A DNA stretch of 64,000 nt, taken from the NCBI RefSeq assembly GCF_055900595.2, contig NZ_CM148325.1; one strand, written 5' to 3'. Numbering within the stretch: the first letter of the stretch is position 1; every line of letters starts with the position of its first letter. The notes beneath the pieces were generated by a model. That model saw only the letters and a list, made by a program, of their open reading frames with translations, was not told the origin of the DNA and searched no databases. This document shows positions 12,150 to 63,266 of this stretch, one piece after another. A program made the translations under genes and the position numbers.

Positions 12150-12728
12150 ATGTCTATACAGAACGAAATGCCTGGTTACAACGAAATGAACCAGTATCTG
12201 AACCAACAAGGGACGGGTCTGACCCCTGCTGAGATGCATGGTTTAATCAGTGGGATGATATGTGGTGGTAACGATGACAGCTCATGGCTGCCGCTGCTTC
12301 ACGACCTGACGAACGAAGGCATGGCTTTCGGTCATGAGCTGGCACAGGCATTGCGCAAAATGCACTCTGCTACCAGCGATGCCCTGCAGGATGACGGCTT
12401 CCTTTTTCAGCTTTATCTGCCTGATGGCGATGATGTCAGCGTTTTCGATCGGGCTGATGCGCTGGCAGGTTGGGTTAATCACTTCCTGCTTGGTCTTGGC
12501 GTTACGCAACCGAAGCTGGACAAAGTGACCGGCGAAACCGGTGAAGCCATCGACGATCTGCGTAACATCGCGCAGCTGGGCTACGACGAAGACGAAGATC
12601 AGGAAGAGCTGGAAATGTCGCTTGAAGAGATCATCGAGTACGTCCGTGTTGCCGCGCTGTTATGCCACGACACCTTTACTCATCCGCAACCGACCGCGCC
12701 AGAAGTACAAAAACCGACTCTACACTAA
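12150..12728 (+). CDS. ygfB: UPF0149 family protein YgfB
   Basis: ORF 12144..12728; the 192-aa protein begins [18 protein letters not shown] at the third codon. Confidence 0.85.
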
Positions 12729-36087: not shown

Positions 36088-36521
36088 CAGTGTTTCTCCT
36101 TTCGCCCGCCAGAGTAAAAAGCAACCGTTTACGTTATTGAAACTGTCTAAACATATGCTCGTGGAGTGCCAGTTTTTGCGAGGAAGGGGAGTTAGAGACA
36201 GGAATTGCGGAGGCAATCACATAATCGTGGTTAAACCACGAAAATGAGAAGAGAACCTGACAATGGAATTATCTGTAATTTTCTCATATTGATATTTCAT
36301 TAATCATTCTGGCATGTCGCACTCTCGCATTTAATCGTTTTTATCTGGATAGCGCTCTTTTGGTCGGCAATGTTGAAATAATGAAAGCGGCACAGATTGA
36401 GGGGTAATAATTTGAACTTAGTCACAAACTTATAATTAAAAAGTCATTCTACCTAATATATGCCCGTTTATTGCATCGCGAACTTTGAGAAGACATAACT
36501 CATTAAATGAAAGGGATGCAA

Positions 36522-43266: not shown

Positions 43267-46137
43267 TTATATTTTTTCCAGCGCGGTGAGTATTTTCTCC
43301 GGTGTGAAATGCCATTCGCGTAACCAGATGCCGCAGGCATCGTGAATTGCGGTAGCAATCGCCGGAGCTGCGCCATTTACACCGATTTCTGAGATTGATT
43401 TCGCCCCGAATGGGCCGACTTTATCGTCGCTCGGCACCAGCACAGCGCGGAAATCACGCGGAATGTCACCAATTTTCGGTGCGCCGTAACTGCGTAAATC
43501 ACGCGTTAACGGGTGGCCTTCGGCGTCATAAATGATTTCTTCGCTCATACTGTGCCCGATAGCACGCAGGGTGGCACCGTAGATTTGTCCCAACGCTAAC
43601 TCTGGATTGACCGGTGTACCGCAGTCCAGCAAGGCATAGAATTTATCCAGGCGGATTTCACCCGTACGTGTGTTGACGGCAACTTCAGCAAAGTTTGCGC
43701 CATACGGGAAGGCGAAATCAGGCGTGATATAACTGGCAGTTCCCACCAGTGAACCAAAACCGGTGCCGGTTTCGCCTTTATGGGCAATATCACCGAAACT
43801 AACTTCGCCTTTCTTGCCGCGAACGACACCCGGCGTTGCCAGTTGAACATCCTCCAGGGGTTCCCCCAGCATTTGTGCACCGTGGAACAGGATTTTCTCT
43901 CGGAGATTTTCTGCCGCCATACGCGCCGCGTTGCCGGAGAAACATGTACCGGACGAGGCATATGCGCCTTTATCAAACAGCGCATGATCGGTATCACCGG
44001 AGATAACATGCACGTCCTGCGGTGGGCAGTGCAGCACTTCTGCTGCCAGTTTCGTCACAACCGTATCCAGACCAGTACCAATATCCGCACCGCCAGAATG
44101 AACGATAAAAGTACCGTCCGATTCCAGTTTGATCATGCAGTTAGCCTGATCAATATCCGGGATACCCGATTTCTGCATGATAATGGCGACGCCGCGACCG
44201 ATGTGCCAGTCACCATTTTGCGGTTTTGGTGAAGACCATTGGATCATCTCGCGACCCTGACGCAGGATCTCTTCCAGCGCGCAGCTGGCGGCGGAAGGAA
44301 CGGAGGTCGGCGCTTTACCTTCACCAATCGCACCGAGAATTTTCAGCTCTTGCCCTTCGTGTACCCGATTACGTTCGATAATTTCCAGTTGATCGATCTG
44401 TAACTGTTCAGCCAGTTCCGCTAATGCCATGGTGATAGCGAAGTTACCTTTCGGTGCGCCATAACCCTGATAAGCACCATTTGGGCAAATGTTGCTGTAG
44501 TAGGTGGTGACCTGGAAATCGACGTTATCGCACGGATATAACGGCAGCGACAGCGCCGGTCCGTTACACGGTACGGTGAGTGAGTGGTTGCCGTAAGGGC
44601 CTGTGTTGGCGCGGAAATCCATCTTCACAGCCGTCAGGCGACCATCTTTCTTTGCCCCCAGTTTGACGGTGACTTTCGCGACGTGACGAGAGGTGTTAGC
44701 AATAAACTGTTCTTCACGGGTGTAGCGGAACAGTACCGGACGCCCGGTCACGCAGGTTGCCCAGGCGCACACTTCTTCCAGCAGGATGTCCTGTTTAGAC
44801 CCAAAACCGCCGCCAACTCGCTCTTTAATGACATGAACTTTATGTTGTTTCATGCCCACGAGGCGCGCGACCTGGCGGCGTAAGTGCCATGGTACCTGGG
44901 TGGAGGCGTGGATAACCAGACGATCGCCGTCCATACGGGTAAAGCAGATATGAGTTTCAGTCGGGCATTGCTGCGCCTGAGTTGAGTTATAGGTTCGCTC
45001 AATGATCACATCGGCATCGGCAAAGCCTTTATCCATATCGCCAATATGACCATGAATACTGGCGGCGATATTTTTACGAGGGCGAGAACCGATAGGGAAG
45101 TTGATAATCATATGCTCGCCGCGCTGGGCTGCATGGCTGTTATCGTCTTCCAGAGTGTCTGGCGCACCCGCCACATACACCACCGGTTCATCGTGTACGA
45201 CAGGCGCATCTTCCGCCATTGCCTCGTCAATCGACATTACAGGCTTAAGCACTTCATATTCAACGTCGATGAGCTTCAGTGCTTCGAGCGCAATTTCTTC
45301 ACTTTCAGCGACTACCGCAGCAACGCGATCGCCGACGTGACGCATTTTCTTGCCGAACATACGGCGGTCAAGCGGTGACGGTTCCGGTGCGCTCTGACCA
45401 CCCGGGGTGTAGTAGATATCCGGGCAATTCAGATGAGTAATAACGTGAACGACGCCTGGTAAGGCTTCAGCTTTGCTGACATCCAGGTGAGTAATCAGTG
45501 CGTGAGCGTGAGGGCTACGTAACATTTTAATGACGCAGGCGTCAGCCGTTACGCGGTCTTCAACATAGCAGGGTTTCGCCTGCACCATTTTTGCGGCATC
45601 AGTTTTAGGATAATGCTTACCAATGACTTCAAGGTCATCGCGGAAAGTCGGAGCGATATCAATGGTGGCCTGCGGGTTATTTTTACGTGCAACCGCCAGT
45701 TCAATGACCTGATAGTATTGTTGCCAGCCTGCATCGCGACTGAACAAACCAGAAAGCGCGTCGTCGATCTCTTCGCGGGTCGGTGCGGCGATACGCTCGA
45801 GCAGATCAGTGATAATCAGAGCAGCAGCTGGATCGTTATAACCAGACTGCACCACGCCAACATCAACCATTGCCTGTTGAACCAGACTTAACTCGTTCCA
45901 TTTTCCCAGAGACTCTGCGGTACGAATATTAGCCTTCTCTATCTGTGCGGCAATAAGTAAGGACGCGTTGACGATATTACCGTTAAAGATAATTGCGTCA
46001 GAACCGGCAAAACCGAATCCATCATCGCTGTTGCGTACAGAGTGCATTCCCATGTTAAACAACAGCTTTTGCACGTTTTCACCAGGATTAACGGTTAGCT
46101 CCTGGGGCGTGCCATTTAATGTAAAGTGGATGATCAT
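43267..46137 (-). CDS. xdhD: molybdopterin-containing hydroxylase, large subunit (xanthine dehydrogenase family, with N-terminal 2Fe-2S domain)
   Basis: 956-aa ORF. Confidence 0.88.
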   Translation of the reverse strand: MIIHFTLNGTPQELTVNPGENVQKLLFNMGMHSVRNSDDGFGFAGSDAIIFNGNIVNASLLIAAQIEKANIRTAESLGKWNELSLVQQAMVDVGVVQSGYNDPAAALIITDLLERIAAPTREEIDDALSGLFSRDAGWQQYYQVIELAVARKNNPQATIDIAPTFRDDLEVIGKHYPKTDAAKMVQAKPCYVEDRVTADACVIKMLRSPHAHALITHLDVSKAEALPGVVHVITHLNCPDIYYTPGGQSAPEPSPLDRRMFGKKMRHVGDRVAAVVAESEEIALEALKLIDVEYEVLKPVMSIDEAMAEDAPVVHDEPVVYVAGAPDTLEDDNSHAAQRGEHMIINFPIGSRPRKNIAASIHGHIGDMDKGFADADVIIERTYNSTQAQQCPTETHICFTRMDGDRLVIHASTQVPWHLRRQVARLVGMKQHKVHVIKERVGGGFGSKQDILLEEVCAWATCVTGRPVLFRYTREEQFIANTSRHVAKVTVKLGAKKDGRLTAVKMDFRANTGPYGNHSLTVPCNGPALSLPLYPCDNVDFQVTTYYSNICPNGAYQGYGAPKGNFAITMALAELAEQLQIDQLEIIERNRVHEGQELKILGAIGEGKAPTSVPSAASCALEEILRQGREMIQWSSPKPQNGDWHIGRGVAIIMQKSGIPDIDQANCMIKLESDGTFIVHSGGADIGTGLDTVVTKLAAEVLHCPPQDVHVISGDTDHALFDKGAYASSGTCFSGNAARMAAENLREKILFHGAQMLGEPLEDVQLATPGVVRGKKGEVSFGDIAHKGETGTGFGSLVGTASYITPDFAFPYGANFAEVAVNTRTGEIRLDKFYALLDCGTPVNPELALGQIYGATLRAIGHSMSEEIIYDAEGHPLTRDLRSYGAPKIGDIPRDFRAVLVPSDDKVGPFGAKSISEIGVNGAAPAIATAIHDACGIWLREWHFTPEKILTALEKI

Positions 46138-46913
46138 ACGGCTTCCTCCCCAGCCTGTTGGCAGTCGGCATAAAGGTCGGCTACCAGAACTCCCGTGATA
46201 TAGCGTTTATAGGCCACGCTGCCCCGCAAATCTTCCTGCGGGAAAATGGCGTTGGCGACAGCCTGTTCAAGGGCATCGCCTTCCAAGTTTTGTTTTTCAA
46301 CATCGTGCAGACGCAGTGCTTTACTGGCCACGCCATCCAACGCAATTCGCATACCGTCGTGATCGGTTAACGCAACGGCTGCCGTTACTACCGTTAACCC
46401 AGCCTGAGAACGGCTAATTTTGCGAGTCGCACAGGTGCGATACGGATCTTTAATGATGATTTCGGTTAGCAGGCGATCGCATGGGCAGGCCAGGTACTCC
46501 TCAATTGACAGAGTTTCACCGTTGCCAAAAACCAGTTCGGCATCCAGTGCCAGCAGGACGGGAAGCAGCACCGACTCTTCCTGCCGGGCGGCGATTTCAC
46601 CACCAATGGTCGACTGATTACGAATATGGCGAGAGTAGACAAAGCCGAGAGCCTCACGCAGTGCTGCAGGAATAAACCGTGCATCACGCAGTGTTTGCAA
46701 GCGAGACATCGCGCCAATCCGCAATGCACCGTTATCCCAGTCAACCCAGTCCAGTTCCAGATCCTGTAAGGATATGGCAATCTTTTTATCGGTACGGGTT
46801 GGTGTGGCGTTGAGTTTACTGCCTCCGGCAAACCAGACAGCTTCATCCTGATAGCGGCGCTTCAGTTCCAGCGCCTGTTCGACAGAGTCGGGTCTGAAAA
46901 ATTGTTCAATCAT
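46134..46913 (-). CDS. ygfM: FAD-binding subunit of molybdo-hydroxylase (CO dehydrogenase flavoprotein-like)
   Basis: 259-aa ORF; start overlaps xdhD. Confidence 0.85.
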   Translation of the reverse strand: MIEQFFRPDSVEQALELKRRYQDEAVWFAGGSKLNATPTRTDKKIAISLQDLELDWVDWDNGALRIGAMSRLQTLRDARFIPAALREALGFVYSRHIRNQSTIGGEIAARQEESVLLPVLLALDAELVFGNGETLSIEEYLACPCDRLLTEIIIKDPYRTCATRKISRSQAGLTVVTAAVALTDHDGMRIALDGVASKALRLHDVEKQNLEGDALEQAVANAIFPQEDLRGSVAYKRYITGVLVADLYADCQQAGEEAV

Positions 46914-46963
46914 CTTCTTTCCTTATTTAACCCTCTTCCTTTAAGGAAGAGGGTATCTGTCAT

Positions 46964-48292
46964 TTATGCCAGCGCATCCATCCGACGCCACATACTGGCG
47001 GCGGCTTTTTGGGCTTGCGCATAAATGGAATCGCAATCGAAGTTAAACTGACGGTCTTCATAGACCATAACGCCATTGACCATCACGCTATGAACGCTGC
47101 CTGAACCCATGCCGAAAGCGATATGTCCAGCGATATTGTCTGCCAGCAGTGGCGTCGGTGAGTTGTAATCGCAAATGGTTAAATCGGCTTTATAACCGGC
47201 TTCAAGAAGGCCAAATTTCGCGCCAAAGTTGCGGCTCATCAGTTCGTTGCCGTTAGCCAGAGCTTTGGCAAAGCTGTCAGGCCACAGCGGACCACCCGCA
47301 TCGCGATGTTTAAAGAAGGCAAATTTCATCTCTTCAAACATGTCCGAACCAATTCCGTCCGTTCCCAACGCCAGATTGCGGATGTCGCAAAGATGATGGT
47401 TGTAGCCGACATGGTTGTTCATGTTTGAACGGGCGTTATGCACCAGGAATGCATCACGCTGATTGAGCAACGCGATGTCGTCTTTAGACAGATAAAGCCC
47501 ATGAGCGACCAGCGTTTTGCTGTCGATGAGATCGAATTGCGCTAATCGTGCCAGCAGATCTTTGCCGTACCAGTGATGACTATGGGAAACATCGTAAAGG
47601 TCTTCCGCAGCGTGAATATGTAAACCACGGCCTGTGGCTTTCACGGCCTCACGCAGCATTTCCAGACCGGCATCCGGCACAGTAAACGGCGCGTGAGCAC
47701 CAATATGAGCCTCTACCAGATACGGTTCAGTTGCCGCTTTCTTCGCATCATCAATCTGACGGGCGAAGCGGATATTTTCCTCTACTCCTTCCTGTAGTTC
47801 TTTAATGCCGTTGTTACGGTCAGTGGTTTCAAAACAGGTCATCGCACGCAGGCCAACTTTTAAAAATGCGTTGCGCAATGTGGAGAGCGACCCGCCGATA
47901 TACGCCGGAGAGGCATGGTGATCGATAACAGATGTACATCCGCTCTTAATCGCTTCCAGGGAACAAATCAGTCCGCTGTAATAGAGAGACTCTTCATCAA
48001 GGGCGCGATCGAGTCGCCACCAGAGATTTTTCAGCGTTGAGATGAAATCCGGGCAGGGGGCGATGTTTGCCATAATTCCACGGGAAAGCCCCGAGTAAAA
48101 ATGGTTGTGCGAGCAGACAATTCCCGGCATCACAATCCGACCATGCATCTCTTTGTAGCTGGCATCGGGGTAGCGTTGCGTCAGAGCATCGCCTATAGCG
48201 ACAATCACATCATTTTCGATGGCGATATCAACGCCTTCCTGCACTTTCGCCGGGTGTAACTGCACTGCGGTGACATTCTTCAGAATCAACAT
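46964..48292 (-). CDS. ssnA: amidohydrolase-superfamily protein SsnA (chlorohydrolase/deaminase-like)
   Basis: 442-aa ORF with an HxH metal-binding motif. Confidence 0.88.
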   Translation of the reverse strand: MLILKNVTAVQLHPAKVQEGVDIAIENDVIVAIGDALTQRYPDASYKEMHGRIVMPGIVCSHNHFYSGLSRGIMANIAPCPDFISTLKNLWWRLDRALDEESLYYSGLICSLEAIKSGCTSVIDHHASPAYIGGSLSTLRNAFLKVGLRAMTCFETTDRNNGIKELQEGVEENIRFARQIDDAKKAATEPYLVEAHIGAHAPFTVPDAGLEMLREAVKATGRGLHIHAAEDLYDVSHSHHWYGKDLLARLAQFDLIDSKTLVAHGLYLSKDDIALLNQRDAFLVHNARSNMNNHVGYNHHLCDIRNLALGTDGIGSDMFEEMKFAFFKHRDAGGPLWPDSFAKALANGNELMSRNFGAKFGLLEAGYKADLTICDYNSPTPLLADNIAGHIAFGMGSGSVHSVMVNGVMVYEDRQFNFDCDSIYAQAQKAAASMWRRMDALA

Positions 48293-48294
48293 GA

Positions 48295-51200
48295 TTACAC
48301 CTCCACGCGGCCCAGCAGATAATGATGATGCTGGTGGACATGGCTAATGATGCGGCACATATCGTTCAGCTCCGGTGGTACGTTGTTGAACTGACCTTCG
48401 CTGTCGATGTTTAACACCCAGCTTTGGTTATTCAGACGTATGCGTACCTGGCAATCTTCCACAAGGAAGCCTGGGTTGCTGCTGTTATCAAAGTCTTGCG
48501 ACAGGCTGAATACGGTGATTTTGTCTTTATATGGTTTACCGTTCCACGGGCAGAACTGGGCGCAGTTGCCGCATTCGTTACAGTAAGCGTCGAGGTGCAG
48601 CGTCTGGAAACGGTTCTGGAATCCAGGGACCGCAATTGAGACATTGGCGCGGTTAGGGCAGACATCCACACACTTGCTGCAAACGTAGTTACATTCAAGA
48701 CAGCGAGAAGCTTCCTGAGCGACAAACGCATCACGATCGTCGCTATCCACCAGGGTGATAGAGATATCGCCTTTGCGTTGATAGATTTCCGCCGGATTGA
48801 CGTTGTTCCAGTATTTATCGTTCTGGTGGGAACGGATATTTTCCCGACTAAGGATGGCATCGGTCGCCCGACGCGCGGTTCCGACAGCAGCGACAATGGA
48901 GGATGGTCCGCGCTGTACGTCGCCGATCATAAAGACGTCAGTCAGACGAGTTTCGCCATTATGGTCGACGTCTGGCCAGCCGTTTTTGTCCAGCGGCACG
49001 CCCATCGCATTCAGGGCTTCAGTATCCTGCTGTTCACCAATGGCGGTGATCAGGCTGTCTACATGCAGTGTTACTGTTTCGTTGGTTTCAACCGGACGGC
49101 GACGACCTTTCTCATCAGGTTCGCCAAGCGACATAACGCGCAAGGTTAAGGTGCCATCAGCATCGAAACGTTCCGGATTATTCAGGAAACGGAACTCCAC
49201 GCCGTCGTGCAACGCTTCTTCATACTCTTCGCGCCATGCTGGCATCTCTTGCAGTGAACGACGGTAAACGACCGTTGCTTTTTCTACGCCTGGAACGCGT
49301 AACGCCGCACGAGCGCAGTCCATTGCGGTGTTACCCGCCCCGACAACGACCACATGTTTGCCCAGCTTGAGCGCTGTGCCCTTGTTGTATTCACGCAGGA
49401 AGGGGAGTGATTTCCAGACATTTTGGTTGTCGCCCGCCAGTTTCACACCGCTATTTTTATCAGTGCCGGTGGCAATCAGAACATAGTGGAAGCCCTGATT
49501 TTTTAACTGTTCAACGGTCAGATCGGGTGAGCAGCCATACTCAAATTTCACGCCGTGAGCGGCAACAAAATCGATATCGTGCTGAATTAACTCTGCAGGA
49601 ATACGGAACTGAGGAATGATATTTTTCACCACGCCGCCCGCATTGGCTTCGCGTTCAAACAGCGTAACCGGATGGCCCGCTCTGGCAAGGAAGTAACCTG
49701 CTGCCAGACCCGCCGGACCTGCACCAATCACGGCAACCGGATGGCGTGAACCAGAACCGGCTGGTTTGTGCCAGCGTTGCTTATATTCATCCCAACCTTT
49801 TTCCAGCGCGACTTTTTTCAGTTCGCGGATATTCAGCGCACTGTCGTAATCCAGGCGGGTACAGTTGTATTGGCACTGGTGATCGCAAATATGACCGGTA
49901 ATGGCGGGCAGGGCGTTGCGTTGGTAGATGAGTTCCAGTGCGTCGGCATAGCGGTGTTCGCCAAGCAGACGGATGTATTCCGGAATATCCTGTTTAATGG
50001 CGCAAGCAGTAACGCACGGTGCAACGTAGCAGTCGGTCAACGGCAGGTCTTCTGCCACTTCAATACGCTCTTCTGGCTTCCAGTGTTTCTGAGTGTATTC
50101 CATGGTTAACGCGTCTGCTGCCAGTTTGTTCAGTCGTTCGACGTCAACATGGTCAAGCCCCCAGGCGTCGGAGCCTTCCAGCTCGCGCATGCAGGCACTT
50201 AAGCGCAGATAGCCGCCAGGTTTCAGCAGGTCGGTTGCCATAGTAATAGGGCGAATACCAGTATCAAAAATATCGCGGATAGTCAGCTGACTGGCACCAC
50301 CGGAATAAGAAATGGGCAGTTTGCCGTCAAAGGCGCGAGAGAGAACTGCTGCAACATTGATGGAGAGCGGGAACAGCGCACGGCCTGACATATACATCTC
50401 TTCACCAGGCAGTGCGCCTTTATTGTTGATGGTGCCGAGAGTGTTAGTCAGTTTTACGCCAAAGCCGAGTGATTTTTCTTTTGCCAGTACCATCAGGCGT
50501 TCCAGCATTTCCAGCGCTTGCGTCAGCTTGAGGTCGTGATCAAATGACTCTTCTTTTAAGCCTATGTAACCGAAACCGCAGACATCGAGGATCTCACGAA
50601 CACGCGCGTACCCCAGTAAGGTCGGGTTGAGTTTCACAAAGGTATTGAGCCCTTTTTCTTCCAGCATGTAGCGGCAAATGGCTTCGATTTCATGCGGAGG
50701 ACAGCCGTGCATCGTGGAGAGGGTGACGCCCTGCACCATGCTGGTGGGGATGCGAGCGGGTAAGGCCTGCAAGCATTCGCGTTTTTCCTGTAAGCCGTGG
50801 CGGGCTAAAAATGCGTCATCCTGGAGTAATTTATTCAGCGTATCGCGATATTGAGCGAATTTCGGATGGTCAGATGCGTCCATCATATTGTCGATGAACT
50901 GTTGCATTGGCGGTTGCTTAATACCTTCGAGGTTGTAACCGACGCTCATATTAAAGATGAACGATTTACCGGAATCAGAAGGCTGGAACATCGCTTCGAG
51001 AAGGTGCAGGGCAAACCAGGCTTTGAGGTATTCATCCCAGGCTTTAAGCAGGGTAAATTCGGTAGACCATTCGGTGTTAAAGCACTCGTCTTCAGCGTCG
51101 ATACAGGGCTTTTCCAGTTCCAGGCGGTCAAGAATTTGGACAGTTTTTAGTTCGATGAAGCGTCCGCCAGTCAGCCAGGATGTGACAATATTTTGCGCGA

Positions 51201-51393
51201 GCTGCGTGTGCGGACCAGCGGCAGGGCCGACGGGAGTGGCACAGGTTTCACCGAAGACGCTAACAGTTTTACCTTTTACGGGTGAGTAAAACTGTTGCTC
51301 GGGAATACCAAAGATTGAGCGTTGTTGTTGGTATTCATCAAATATGCGCGTCAAAAGTTCCTCAAACGGAATGGGACGCATAATATCCCCCAT
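48295..51393 (-). CDS. ygfK: large Fe-S flavoprotein YgfK (GltD/DPD-like with ferredoxin domains; annotated putative selenate reductase component)
   Basis: 1032-aa ORF MGDIMRPIPFEELLTRIFDEYQQQRSIFGIP. Confidence 0.88.
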   Translation of the reverse strand: MGDIMRPIPFEELLTRIFDEYQQQRSIFGIPEQQFYSPVKGKTVSVFGETCATPVGPAAGPHTQLAQNIVTSWLTGGRFIELKTVQILDRLELEKPCIDAEDECFNTEWSTEFTLLKAWDEYLKAWFALHLLEAMFQPSDSGKSFIFNMSVGYNLEGIKQPPMQQFIDNMMDASDHPKFAQYRDTLNKLLQDDAFLARHGLQEKRECLQALPARIPTSMVQGVTLSTMHGCPPHEIEAICRYMLEEKGLNTFVKLNPTLLGYARVREILDVCGFGYIGLKEESFDHDLKLTQALEMLERLMVLAKEKSLGFGVKLTNTLGTINNKGALPGEEMYMSGRALFPLSINVAAVLSRAFDGKLPISYSGGASQLTIRDIFDTGIRPITMATDLLKPGGYLRLSACMRELEGSDAWGLDHVDVERLNKLAADALTMEYTQKHWKPEERIEVAEDLPLTDCYVAPCVTACAIKQDIPEYIRLLGEHRYADALELIYQRNALPAITGHICDHQCQYNCTRLDYDSALNIRELKKVALEKGWDEYKQRWHKPAGSGSRHPVAVIGAGPAGLAAGYFLARAGHPVTLFEREANAGGVVKNIIPQFRIPAELIQHDIDFVAAHGVKFEYGCSPDLTVEQLKNQGFHYVLIATGTDKNSGVKLAGDNQNVWKSLPFLREYNKGTALKLGKHVVVVGAGNTAMDCARAALRVPGVEKATVVYRRSLQEMPAWREEYEEALHDGVEFRFLNNPERFDADGTLTLRVMSLGEPDEKGRRRPVETNETVTLHVDSLITAIGEQQDTEALNAMGVPLDKNGWPDVDHNGETRLTDVFMIGDVQRGPSSIVAAVGTARRATDAILSRENIRSHQNDKYWNNVNPAEIYQRKGDISITLVDSDDRDAFVAQEASRCLECNYVCSKCVDVCPNRANVSIAVPGFQNRFQTLHLDAYCNECGNCAQFCPWNGKPYKDKITVFSLSQDFDNSSNPGFLVEDCQVRIRLNNQSWVLNIDSEGQFNNVPPELNDMCRIISHVHQHHHYLLGRVEV

Positions 51394-51473
51394 AACCCTC
51401 TCCTTAGCTTATACAGATATCATTGAGTGACCGGTGTTGAGAAATCCGGTGGTTTAGGGGGATAGAGCAACAA

Positions 51474-51490
51474 TCGCACCACTCTTGCCA
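51474..51490 (-). promoter_or_regulatory. candidate sigma54 (-24/-12) promoter for the ygfK-ssnA-ygfM-xdhD operon
   Basis: Minus-strand TGGCAA-gagtg-GTGC about 83 nt upstream of the ygfK ATG; GG and GC spaced as in the consensus TGGCAC-N5-TTGC. Confidence 0.3.
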
Positions 51491-51714
51491 GGTTTGGCGG
51501 GAAATATAAAAAAATGTGAGGCGGCTCGAAACTTAAGGGCTTTTTGTGAATGAACTCACAGGTGCCAAATGAGAATTAAAATCACTCCTGGAAATTATTA
51601 TTACCAGCCCATTTATCACTTTTTCTCTTTTCTCAAAATCAGTGATTCCTTATCATAATGATAAAGCAGGCTGGATGGTTTAAATATTTGAGCGCAAACG
51701 TTTAACTACGTTTT

Positions 51715-52293
51715 CTAAATTTCAGTATACCTTTTTTGCGCTGTAATAAAGTCGTCCGGAGTATCAATATCTAAAATTATTTCTGCATTCTCTATTTCGA
51801 CGGAATAATGTTCTCCCATAAGGAGTGCCTGACGCATATTGGTGACATTGGGTCGCTGGGTTGCCTGCATCAGGCATGGCTTTGACACTAAAATCGGATG
51901 GCCGGGGATACCTTTATGGAGTGGCAGTATTGCGCCATCATTACGTAACGACCAGATTTTTCTAAAAATATCGATGGTGAGGGTTGGCATGTCACCGTGG
52001 GTGAGAAAACAATGTTCGGTTTGCACCGCGGGTACTGCGGCCTTTACTGATGTCAGTAAACCCTGCGCATAATTTGGGTTGTGGATAATAGTGATATTAC
52101 TCTGGTTCGCATAACGTTCGTGCAGTTCATTACCACGATAGCCGGTGACTAAAATAATTCGGCTACAAAACTGCAACGCATTTTTGATACTTGCATCAAG
52201 AATTGTTCCCTGTTGCCAGGGTAACATCATTTTCCATTGCCCCATTCTTGATGATAATCCGGCAGCGGTAATTATACAGTCGATGGCTGACAT
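51715..52293 (-). CDS. mocA: molybdenum cofactor cytidylyltransferase
   Basis: 192-aa ORF MSAIDCIITAAGLSSRMGQWKMMLPW (MobA-like nucleotidyltransferase). Confidence 0.85.
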   Translation of the reverse strand: MSAIDCIITAAGLSSRMGQWKMMLPWQQGTILDASIKNALQFCSRIILVTGYRGNELHERYANQSNITIIHNPNYAQGLLTSVKAAVPAVQTEHCFLTHGDMPTLTIDIFRKIWSLRNDGAILPLHKGIPGHPILVSKPCLMQATQRPNVTNMRQALLMGEHYSVEIENAEIILDIDTPDDFITAQKRYTEI

Positions 52294-52395: not shown

Positions 52396-53166
52396 GTGAA
52401 AAGTATAGTTGACCCATCGGCATTATTCATTGATTTAGGCGCGCAGAAACGCCCCACTGTGATTTCTGTTGTTGGGGCTGGGGGGAAAACCAGCTTGCTT
52501 TTTTGGCTGGCAGAACTGCTCCAGGCTAGCGGCAGGCGTGTGTTAATCACTACGACGACACATATGTTTATGCCAACGTCTCACTGGCCCGTGGTTTTCT
52601 GTCGTGATCCCGCCATGCTTCCTCATGCGTCTCTTACATCCCCCATTTCATTTTGTTTTCACAGCTGGAAAGCGAACCAGGGAAAAGTGCAGGGATTTAT
52701 GCCAGAAGCGATTGATGCACTGGTGCAACGACCAGAGTGTGACGTAATTCTCATTGAGGCAGATGGCTCGCGTGGAATGCCGTTAAAAGCGCCTGATGAG
52801 CACGAACCTTGCATACCCAAAAGCAGTTGCTGCGTGATTGCTGTGATGGGAGGACATATTTTGGGTGCGAAAGTGAGCACAGAAAATGTCCATCGCTGGT
52901 CGCAGTTTGCTGATATTACCGGGTTAACACCTGATGCAACCTTGCAACTGAGCGATCTCGTTGCGCTGGTTCGCCACCCTCAGGGCGCATTTAAAAACGT
53001 ACCGCAAGGTTGTCGGCGAGTCTGGTTCATTAACCGTTTTTCTCAATGTGAGAATGCGATTGCGCAAAGCGAGCTCCTTCAACCGCTGCAACAACACGAC
53101 GTAGAGGCAATCTGGCTGGGCGATATACAAGAACATCCTGCAATCGCGCGCAGATTTGTGAATTAG
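52396..53166 (+). CDS. yqeC: YqeC, accessory protein of the putative selenium-dependent molybdenum hydroxylase system
   Basis: 256-aa ORF with P-loop-like VVGAGGKTS. Confidence 0.8.
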   Translation: MKSIVDPSALFIDLGAQKRPTVISVVGAGGKTSLLFWLAELLQASGRRVLITTTTHMFMPTSHWPVVFCRDPAMLPHASLTSPISFCFHSWKANQGKVQGFMPEAIDALVQRPECDVILIEADGSRGMPLKAPDEHEPCIPKSSCCVIAVMGGHILGAKVSTENVHRWSQFADITGLTPDATLQLSDLVALVRHPQGAFKNVPQGCRRVWFINRFSQCENAIAQSELLQPLQQHDVEAIWLGDIQEHPAIARRFVN

Positions 53167-61012: not shown

Positions 61013-61103
61013 AAAGTCCCGGTAGTGGAATGACAGGCAAAGTGGTTTATTTCACTGTGACTTGCCAAAGTGATTGGTGTTTTCACAGCTATACCAGGGA
61101 CTA

Positions 61104-61118
61104 ACAATAAGTGTGCCA
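61104..61118 (-). promoter_or_regulatory. candidate sigma54 promoter for ygeW
   Basis: Minus-strand TGGCAC-actta-TTGT about 90 nt upstream of the ygeW ATG; -24 element perfect, -12 has GT instead of GC. Confidence 0.3.
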
Positions 61119-61487
61119 GAATTATCCACGCGGCTATAAAAGACTAATTTGACGGGTAATGTGTGGTGTAGATCACAAATTGATGCCAGCTTCCGGTTGT
61201 GTGTAAAATACGAAAACGTTTGGCTTTTTTTATTGCGTTGTTTATTTGCTGCTAAGTATCAGAAATAAGATAAAGGGGCAGGCTATCCCTCGTCAGTTTG
61301 ATAAACTCACCGCTGTAATTCTCATATTGATATAGAAATGTGATATCTCTTCCATAATTTCATTAGAAAGTGATAAAAACCTTATGTTTTTATCAAAGCC
61401 AATTTCGCCTGAGTTAATATCATGATGATCTGTGAACCATCAACGTCTTCAATGATCGACTTTTAAGTAAGTCTGGAAGGTAAAGCT

Positions 61488-63266
61488 ATGGAGCTTGCTA
61501 CTACGCAGTCAGTATTGATGCAAATTCAACCGACAATTCAGCGTTTTGCCAGAATGCTTGCCAGCGTTTTGCAGCTTGAGGTTGAGATCGTTGATGAAAA
61601 CTTGTGTCGCGTCGCCGGAACGGGCGCGTATGGGAAGTTTCTTGGCCGCCAGTTGAGCGGCAACTCACGCCTGCTCCGCCACGTCCTGGAAACGAAAACT
61701 GAAAAAGTTGTGACACAGTCTCGCTTCGATCCCCTTTGCGAAGGTTGCGATAATAAAGATAATTGTCGCGAAAAAGCATTTCTGGGTACGCCTGTCATTT
61801 TACAGGATCGTTGTGTTGGGGTGATAAGTTTGATTGCAGTTACCCACGAGCAACAAGAACATATCAGTGATAATTTACGCGAGTTTTCTGATTACGTTCG
61901 CCATATATCCACCATTTTTGTTTCGAAACTTCTGGAGGATCAGGGACCAGGAGATAACATCAGTAAAATATTCGCGACCATGATCGATAATATGGATCAG
62001 GGCGTATTAGTTGTTGATGACGATAATCGGGTTCAGTTTGTTAATCAGACGGCCTTAAAAACACTCGGTGTTGTGCAAAATAATATTATTGGGAAACCTA
62101 TCCGTTTCAGACCATTAACATTTGAGAGTAATTTTACCCACGGACATATGCAACATATTGTTTCGTGGGACGATAAAAGTGAATTAATCATTGGTCAATT
62201 GCATAACATTCAGGGCAGACAATTATTTTTAATGGCGTTTCACCAATCGCATACCAGTTTTTCTGTAGCAAATGCACCTGATGAACCGCATATTGAACAA
62301 TTGGTTGGCGAGTGCCGTGTTATGCGGCAATTAAAACGACTCATTAGCCGTATTGCGCCCAGCCCATCCAGCGTTATGGTGGTTGGTGAAAGCGGCACGG
62401 GTAAAGAAGTCGTCGCGCGTGCAATCCATAAGTTGAGTGGAAGACGAAATAAACCCTTTATTGCTATCAACTGTGCCGCGATTCCTGAACAACTTCTGGA
62501 GAGCGAACTATTCGGTTATGTTAAAGGCGCATTTACTGGCGCTTCAGCCAACGGTAAAACAGGGTTGATTCAGGCGGCGAATACGGGCACGCTGTTTCTC
62601 GATGAAATTGGTGATATGCCATTAATGTTGCAGGCTAAATTACTGCGCGCTATTGAGGCGCGTGAAATACTGCCGATTGGTGCCAGTAGCCCAATTCAGG
62701 TCGACATCCGAATCATTTCTGCAACTAACCAGAATTTGGCCCAGTTCATTGCCGAAGGTAAATTCCGCGAAGATCTCTTCTACCGACTCAATGTTATCCC
62801 GATCACTCTTCCACCGCTGCGTGAACGTCAGGAAGATATTGAACTGCTGGTACATTACTTTTTACATCTGCATACCCGTCGTCTGGGATCGGTTTATCCG
62901 GGTATTGCTCCCGATGTCGTCGAGATATTGCGTAAGCATCGTTGGCCCGGAAACCTGCGCGAGTTAAGCAATTTAATGGAATATCTGGTTAACGTTGTTC
63001 CTTCAGGTGAAGTTATCGACAGCACGCTATTGCCTCCAAATTTGCTGAATAATGGCACAACGGAGCAAAGTGATGTAACAGAGGTCAGCGAGGCGCACTT
63101 GGCACTCGATGATGCGGGCGGCACGGCGCTGGAGGAGATGGAAAAGCAAATGATCCGCGAGGCGCTTTCACGTCATAACAGCAAGAAGCAAGTTGCTGAT
63201 GAACTGGGTATCGGCATTGCTACGCTCTATCGCAAGATAAAGAAATATGAGTTGTTAAACGCATAA
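61488..63266 (+). CDS. ygeV: sigma54-dependent transcriptional activator (bacterial enhancer-binding protein)
   Basis: 592-aa ORF with Walker A GESGTGKE, GAFTGA motif and C-terminal HTH. Confidence 0.9.
   Translation: MELATTQSVLMQIQPTIQRFARMLASVLQLEVEIVDENLCRVAGTGAYGKFLGRQLSGNSRLLRHVLETKTEKVVTQSRFDPLCEGCDNKDNCREKAFLGTPVILQDRCVGVISLIAVTHEQQEHISDNLREFSDYVRHISTIFVSKLLEDQGPGDNISKIFATMIDNMDQGVLVVDDDNRVQFVNQTALKTLGVVQNNIIGKPIRFRPLTFESNFTHGHMQHIVSWDDKSELIIGQLHNIQGRQLFLMAFHQSHTSFSVANAPDEPHIEQLVGECRVMRQLKRLISRIAPSPSSVMVVGESGTGKEVVARAIHKLSGRRNKPFIAINCAAIPEQLLESELFGYVKGAFTGASANGKTGLIQAANTGTLFLDEIGDMPLMLQAKLLRAIEAREILPIGASSPIQVDIRIISATNQNLAQFIAEGKFREDLFYRLNVIPITLPPLRERQEDIELLVHYFLHLHTRRLGSVYPGIAPDVVEILRKHRWPGNLRELSNLMEYLVNVVPSGEVIDSTLLPPNLLNNGTTEQSDVTEVSEAHLALDDAGGTALEEMEKQMIREALSRHNSKKQVADELGIGIATLYRKIKKYELLNA

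Follow-up and report, generated by a model that had tools for sequence, protein, structure and literature searches.

Where does transcription of the ygfK-ssnA-ygfM-xdhD genes of Escherichia coli begin, and which sigma factor and activator drive it? These genes encode the first steps of the reductive uric-acid pathway that was recently described in gut bacteria and that bears on gout and on engineered probiotics, and the authors of the 2025 paper on this pathway consider the control of the uric-acid genes to be still poorly understood. The exact position of the promoter matters both for engineering and for studies of regulation. An initial annotation of the 64,000-nt stretch of DNA analysed here (the window) had proposed a sigma54 promoter upstream of ygfK, reasoning that the four genes are too closely packed to need more than one promoter and that YgeV, a sigma54 activator, is encoded nearby. 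The window is E. coli DNA in reversed orientation relative to the K-12 map; it is matched by 5,174 of 5,426 complete genomes, the top match being 99.7% identical. The genes that frame the question are the following.

51715..52293, minus strand: mocA, the gene that precedes the 321-nt spacer leading to ygfK
43267..51393, minus strand: the ygfK-ssnA-ygfM-xdhD block, downstream of the promoter, from open reading frames and RefSeq annotation
48295..51393, minus strand: ygfK, with its ATG at 51393
46964..48292, minus strand: ssnA, separated from ygfK by a 2-nt gap
46134..46913, minus strand: ygfM, separated from ssnA by a 50-nt gap
43267..46137, minus strand: xdhD, overlapping ygfM by 4 nt

These two gaps and the overlap bear out the tight packing of the four genes. 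On the gene strand of the mocA-ygfK spacer, a consensus scan found no sigma70-like hexamer pair. A terminator scan called no terminator-like site after mocA, so that some read-through from mocA is possible. A hairpin just 3' of the mocA stop codon (AAACGT-N6-ACGTTT, 51713..51696) was considered as a terminator and rejected: its stem is weak, it is not followed by a T-run, one of its arms is broken in K-12 and the terminator scan did not call it.

Published ChIP-seq in K-12 shows RNA polymerase-sigma54 bound immediately in front of ygfK and directed towards the operon. The site is listed by Bonocora et al. (2015, PLoS Genet, PMC4591121), in their Table 1, as peak OS31, with a FAT of 26, the motif GTGGTGCGATTGTTGCT, ygfK as the downstream gene and a predicted start 62 nt before it. 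With this FAT, OS31 is among the ten strongest intergenic peaks of the table; its peak centre lies 18 nt from the motif centre, and GTGGTGCGATTGTTGCT is the register chosen by MEME (PMC4591121). The supplementary conservation table of that study gives the ygfK site high scores in several other genera, and ygfK is one of only five genes confirmed by ChIP from an earlier microarray of sigma54 dependence (its ref 28), in which cells without sigma54 were compared with cells overexpressing it (PMC4591121). Over the region that begins with the CRP-like site described below and runs through the ygfK start codon, K-12 MG1655 and the window do not differ in sequence, and the published site therefore maps exactly to 51482..51466 on the minus strand. 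The 17-mer, its orientation, its predicted start (62 nt) and its flanks are thus the same in both, and only the strain background differs. The existence and the orientation of the sigma54 promoter proposed in the initial annotation are supported by the ChIP-seq data and by this identity, whereas its -24/-12 element had been placed 9 nt too far upstream.

A sigma54 promoter of ygfK was in fact already known, first as a prediction in EcoCyc and then through the sigma54 binding mapped in 2015; that it had been predicted before is indicated by the flag 'P' (promoter predicted in EcoCyc) carried by OS31 in Table 1 of Bonocora et al. Since the promoter is present in the literature and in EcoCyc, the finding itself is not new, and what is added here is the corrected register together with a comparative map of the upstream control region that includes a candidate activator site. 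The original prediction probably goes back to Reitzer and Schneider (2001). The two registers and the elements that define them are located as follows.

51482..51466, minus strand: the sigma54 -24/-12 element GTGGTGCGATTGTTGCT, placed by weight matrix, identity with the OS31 motif and conservation
51480/51479, minus strand: the -24 GG of GTGGTGCGATTGTTGCT, with the -12 GC at 51468/51467
51455, minus strand: the predicted transcription start, placed 19 nt beyond the centre of the motif, which leaves 62 nt to the ygfK ATG
51475..51491, minus strand: the register of the initial annotation, CTGGCAAGAGTGGTGCG, a chance look-alike that shares 8 nt with the real site

The string on which the initial annotation had relied is correctly read: on the minus strand, TGGCAAGAGTGGTGC occupies 51490..51476, its GG and GC are 10 nt apart, which is the spacing of the sigma54 consensus, and 83 nt separate its end from the ygfK ATG (51393). 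A consensus search gave an overlapping second match 9 nt downstream, TGGTGCGATTGTTGCT (51481..51466), which has a perfect TTGCT -12. Because both registers satisfy the GG-N10-GC spacing, this spacing alone cannot pick between them. In the window as a whole, neither the simple consensus search with three mismatches (100 matches against 128 expected) nor the core TGGCA-N7-TGC (6 against 4.43 +/- 2.28 expected, with 30 of 100 shuffles reaching 6) was enriched. The call of the register rests on a position weight matrix and on conservation, since ChIP-seq cannot resolve registers that are 9 nt apart.

The matrix was derived from the 135 ChIP-seq motifs of Tables 1 and 2 of Bonocora et al. (2015), from which the four ChIP sites of the window itself were left out, giving a model of 131 sites and an intergenic-only model of 47 sites. 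The scan covered 127,968 positions of the window. With the larger model GTGGTGCGATTGTTGCT scores 14.2 bits, near the median of real sites, and ranks second; with the smaller it scores 12.3 bits and ranks fifth. The upstream register CTGGCAAGAGTGGTGCG falls to 8.1 bits (rank 60) and 9.7 bits (rank 28), respectively, lower than 99% and 94% of the sites on which the two models were trained. The interval given in the initial annotation, 51474..51490, shares 9 nt with the true element: the GTGC taken for the -12 belongs to TGGTGC, the true -24 element, whose -12 partner is the TTGCT further downstream. GTGGTGCGATTGTTGCT is intergenic and faces ygfK, with 72 nt from the motif to the ATG and a predicted 5' UTR of 62 nt; the rule for predicting the start and the distance are those of Table 1 of Bonocora et al. 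and were reproduced here.

Conservation also supports the downstream register. We compared 80 ygfK loci from Escherichia, Citrobacter, Klebsiella, Kluyvera, Serratia, Edwardsiella, Morganella, Erwinia/Pantoea, Aeromonas, Vibrio/Photobacterium, Shewanella, some Betaproteobacteria and spirochaetes; these loci share phylogenetic history, and their counts therefore overstate the number of independent observations. Exactly one sense-strand site of at least 11.7 bits is present within 400 nt upstream of ygfK in 74 of these loci, 49-154 nt from the ATG, at a background in the rest of the same loci of 1.05e-4 per position, or 0.042 expected per 400 nt. The register is that of the ChIP motif in all 74, and TGG (positions 2-4) and TTGC (positions 13-16) are invariant. 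By comparison, the -24 GG of the upstream register is kept in 6 of the 74 loci, against about 4.6 expected by chance. Its hexamer differs even among three Escherichia species (CTGGCAAGAG, CTGGCAATAG and CTGGTAAGAG), in all of which the true 17-mer is unchanged, and the register is absent outside the Escherichia loci. The sigma54 site and its surroundings are thus under strong purifying selection. The six loci without a site are four from spirochaetes, one from Ideonella and one with only 53 nt of upstream sequence; in the spirochaetes (L076, L078, L079 and L080) and Ideonella (L051) the best upstream score is 2.9-6.3 bits. As these spirochaete and Ideonella homologues lack an upstream site, sigma54 control of ygfK is not universal.

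These results bear on two alternative placements. That the functional promoter uses the upstream register, with TGGCAA as -24 and GTGC as -12 (51490..51476), is extremely improbable: its GG/GC spacing is correct and ChIP-seq would not distinguish it from the site 9 nt downstream, but its scores, its variability within Escherichia, its absence beyond the genus and the choice of the other register by MEME in the original study all speak against it. It is also highly unlikely that both overlapping registers bind sigma54 in Escherichia and produce two starts 9 nt apart. The presence of GG-N10-GC in both and the strength of the Escherichia ChIP peak could accommodate such an arrangement, but the upstream register scores poorly and is under no visible selection, and the two sites would sterically exclude each other. 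The TGGCAA...GTGC match is a chance overlap specific to Escherichia. The downstream register, GTGGTGCGATTGTTGCT, is the one retained in what follows, and the correction matters for the design of point mutants.

Upstream of GTGGTGCGATTGTTGCT, the mocA-ygfK spacer carries a series of further elements, whose centres are given relative to the predicted start.

51515..51530, minus strand: a box, TTCGAGCCGCCTCACA, of the family TTnGA-N6-TCACr, centre -67.5
51545..51560, minus strand: a CRP-like site, TGTGAGTTCATTCACA, with perfect TGTGA-N6-TCACA half-sites, centre -97.5
51570..51584, minus strand: an element, TGATTTTAATTCTCA, that contains a TTCTCA half-site and is conserved in the anchored comparison, centre near -122
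51630..51644, minus strand: a degenerate second copy of the palindrome, with a conserved right half TGAGAA, centre near -182
51650..51664, no strand assigned: a perfect palindrome, TTATCATTATGATAA, with zero mismatches to TTATCA-N3-TGATAA, centre -202, a candidate UAS

The layout of these elements across species was obtained by anchoring the loci on the sigma54 motif. The TTnGA-N6-TCACr box is separated from the motif by 32-33 nt in 50 of the 72 loci, and by 43-45 nt in a further 13. Throughout Enterobacterales, the CRP-like site is conserved at a spacing of exactly 30 nt on the upstream side of the -67.5 box. This box could be an IHF-like or CRP-like bending site. The loci with the longer distance of 43-45 nt include those of Vibrio and Photobacterium (L052-L062, L071, L072 and L077) and Morganella (L043-L046); there the CRP-like box moves by the same amount, so that exactly one helical turn is added and the phasing is kept. 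Of 72 loci, 71 have the palindrome near -200; the 102 matches compare with 6.5 +/- 2.4 after shuffling of the upstream sequence and with 3 in control stretches of coding sequence of the same length. Across species its centres cluster at -182, -192, -202 and -214, so that successive clusters are about one helical turn apart, and many species have another copy about 20 nt downstream of the main one.

The conservation of this region also helps in weighing the proposal that sigma54 occupies the site but that most transcription of the operon comes from mocA, by read-through, or from a sigma70 promoter that has escaped recognition. Bonocora et al. write of a 'binding site' rather than a 'promoter' and warn that such sites are not necessarily promoters; only NtrC, PspF and GlrR were active under their growth conditions, in which the ygfK site was not activated (PMC4591121). 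Moreover, we found no mapped ygfK transcription start in the literature, and the main text of an in vitro holoenzyme gSELEX study gives the ygeV/ygeW spacer but does not include ygfK. Together with the lack of a terminator-like site after mocA, these points agree with transcription from elsewhere. Against it, the gene strand of the spacer holds no sigma70-like hexamer pair, and the sigma54 site, the palindrome and the -67.5 box are kept from Enterobacterales to Aeromonas, Vibrionaceae and Shewanella, with the site and the palindrome also present in some Betaproteobacteria, a conservation that is hard to explain if the site were silent. Furthermore, uric acid strongly induces ygfK together with ygfT in MG1655. 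We consider transcription mainly from elsewhere to be quite unlikely and the sigma54 element to be the probable origin of the operon's transcript.

The same palindrome recurs within the window. The pattern TTMTCA-N3-TGAKAA, with at most two mismatches, has 10 matches against 1.98 expected, a number reached by none of 100 shuffles. Four of these matches lie upstream of sigma54 sites, at -202 for ygfK, -234 and -205 for ygeW and -198 for ygfT, and just beyond the window xdhA has a palindrome at -152. The two sister sites within the window are located as follows.

61103..61119, minus strand: the ygeW sigma54 site CTGGCACACTTATTGTT (peak OS30), with palindromes at 61319..61333 and 61290..61304
36459..36475, plus strand: the ygfT sigma54 site TATGCCCGTTTATTGCA (peak OS32), with the palindrome TTCTCATATTGATAT at 36281..36295, centre -198

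The promoters of xdhA (OS29), ygeW (OS30) and ygfT (OS32) resemble that of ygfK in combining a -24/-12 element with a palindrome at about -150 to -235 and a box ending in TCACA, which is centred at -67.5 for both xdhA and ygfT but at -77.5 for ygeW, and their genes belong to one published iModulon. The ygfK promoter differs from its sisters in having TGGTGC instead of TGGCAC as its -24 element and in its perfect CRP site at -97.5. At ygfT, the motif TATGCCCGTTTATTGCA is very poor (no GG, 5.4 bits) and yet ChIP-positive, with a FAT of 3; its box TTTGAACTTAGTCACA lies at -67.5 (about 36411..36426) and its palindrome is a 15-mer identical to one of the ygeW copies. Such a pairing of a weak core with a complete upstream module is unusual.

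Because the palindrome is so widely kept near -200 (71 of 72 loci) and recurs in front of ygeW, ygfT and xdhA, it is a candidate enhancer for YgeV, whose gene lies 10.0 kb from the ygfK promoter, as the initial annotation had noted.

61488..63266, plus strand: ygeV, candidate enhancer-binding activator, from annotation and Pfam

In Pfam, the protein has a Sigma54_activat AAA+ domain (E = 2e-70), accompanied by PAS, AAA_lid_14 and HTH_8, which is the full set of an enhancer-binding protein. A tblastn search with YgeV found no homologue of ygeV within 2.5 kb of ygfK in any of the 80 loci, and linkage is therefore unusable as evidence for the activator. In the published 'YgeV iModulon', ygfK, ssnA, ygfM and xdhD co-vary with xdhABC, ygeWXY, hyuA and ygfT, an assignment that is correlative and in which ygeV itself is not a member. 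Two further observations are known through citations: Lamoureux et al. refer to a study that saw lower ygfT expression in a YgeV mutant, and Liu et al. cite Iwadate & Kato 2019 for an involvement of ygeV in uric acid consumption. The gene has also been described as IsrR, an indole-responsive regulator of virulence, in a description that reports no binding site. Taken together, the link between YgeV and the ygfK promoter appears plausible but indirect.

An arrangement in which ygfK is sigma54-dependent but uses an activator other than YgeV, or in which the palindrome binds a different regulator, for instance a repressor, is rather unlikely. It would be in keeping with the IsrR description, with the correlative nature of an iModulon from which ygeV is missing, and with our having found no report of YgeV binding in the literature. 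However, members of the palindrome family lie upstream of all four sigma54 promoters of ygeV's own cluster, the Fis-type HTH of YgeV suits palindromic sites, and the two cited reports, on ygfT in a YgeV mutant and on uric acid consumption, point to YgeV as far as they are relayed by Lamoureux et al. and Liu et al. YgeV thus stays our preferred activator. We slightly favour the broader view that the phased, often paired TTMTCA-N3-TGAKAA sites at -180 to -215 are a previously undescribed YgeV enhancer, which with the -67.5 box and the CRP site would form a common sigma54 control module for the anaerobic uric-acid pathway, serving four promoters in E. coli (xdhA, ygeW, ygfK and ygfT) and extending over Gammaproteobacteria and some Betaproteobacteria. 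The conserved candidate enhancer, common to all four of the cluster's sigma54 promoters, offers a lead on how this pathway is regulated that can be tested.

Based on the above data, the ygfK operon very probably has a classical sigma54-dependent promoter in the mocA-ygfK spacer, with the element GTGGTGCGATTGTTGCT and with YgeV as the most likely activator. The published ChIP-seq in K-12 shows RNA polymerase-sigma54 sitting as a closed complex at this element (51482..51466 on the minus strand). We propose that an enhancer-binding ATPase, most likely YgeV, would bind the -202 palindrome and its -182 neighbour, and perhaps the -122 element. Bending of the DNA at the -67.5 box, whether IHF-like or CRP-like, and/or at the CRP site at -97.5 would allow the activator to reach the closed complex, and ATP hydrolysis by the activator would then open the promoter. 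Transcription would start near 51455, about 62 nt before ygfK, and continue through ygfK-ssnA-ygfM-xdhD. Uric acid or a related purine is the likely inducing signal, and cAMP-CRP the likely one for repression by glucose; uric-acid degradation is glucose-repressed in the wild type.

The promoters glnAp2, activated by NtrC, and pspA, activated by PspF with IHF, are textbook examples of enhancer-dependent sigma54 promoters. Like them, the ygfK promoter would combine a pair of distal sites for the activator with a closed complex at -24/-12 and a DNA-bending site in between. It differs in that its candidate activator sites are unusually far away, at about -180 to -215, in that its bending element is not a clean IHF site and in that a consensus CRP site lies between enhancer and promoter. 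The DioR regulon of Clostridiales (PMC6615313) is comparable in that ygeW-ygfK-ssnA-ygeY and genes nearby are predicted targets of a sigma54 activator; judged from its published description, it belongs to another phylum and has another activator and another operator motif.

Lastly, several other sigma54-like or related sites were observed in the window, one of which is a published intragenic ChIP site.

52797..52813, plus strand: IS34, TGAGCACGAACCTTGCA, inside yqeC and directed towards yqeB, with a FAT of 7 (Bonocora et al., Table 2) and a matrix score of 9.1 bits

A palindrome, TTCTCAATGTGAGAA, is also located in yqeC (53040..53054), 235 nt downstream of IS34 and about 160 nt before the yqeB start; between it and yqeB no sigma54 motif scores above 4.7 bits. 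The best or second-best match to the matrix in the window is ATGGCGCAAACTTTGCT (43703..43687, minus strand; 15.5 or 15.9 bits), which sits within xdhD, towards its 3' end, with about 585 nt between it and the start of xanQ, and is absent from the high-stringency tables of Bonocora et al.; neither xdhD nor xanQ was found in the supplementary data examined. Two more sigma54-like sequences, CTGGCACAGGCATTGCG (12339..12355, plus strand; 13.8-14.4 bits) and CTGGCACGATTAGCGCA (47554..47538, minus strand, inside ssnA; 13.3-13.5 bits, without TTGC), are likewise missing from the published high-stringency list. In the spacer between ygeV and ygeW, a CRP-like site, TGTGATCTACACCACA (61163..61178, minus strand), lies at -77.5 from the predicted ygeW start, and it is probably the 'native Crp-binding site' that was swapped out in strain CBT2.0 (2025 preprint).
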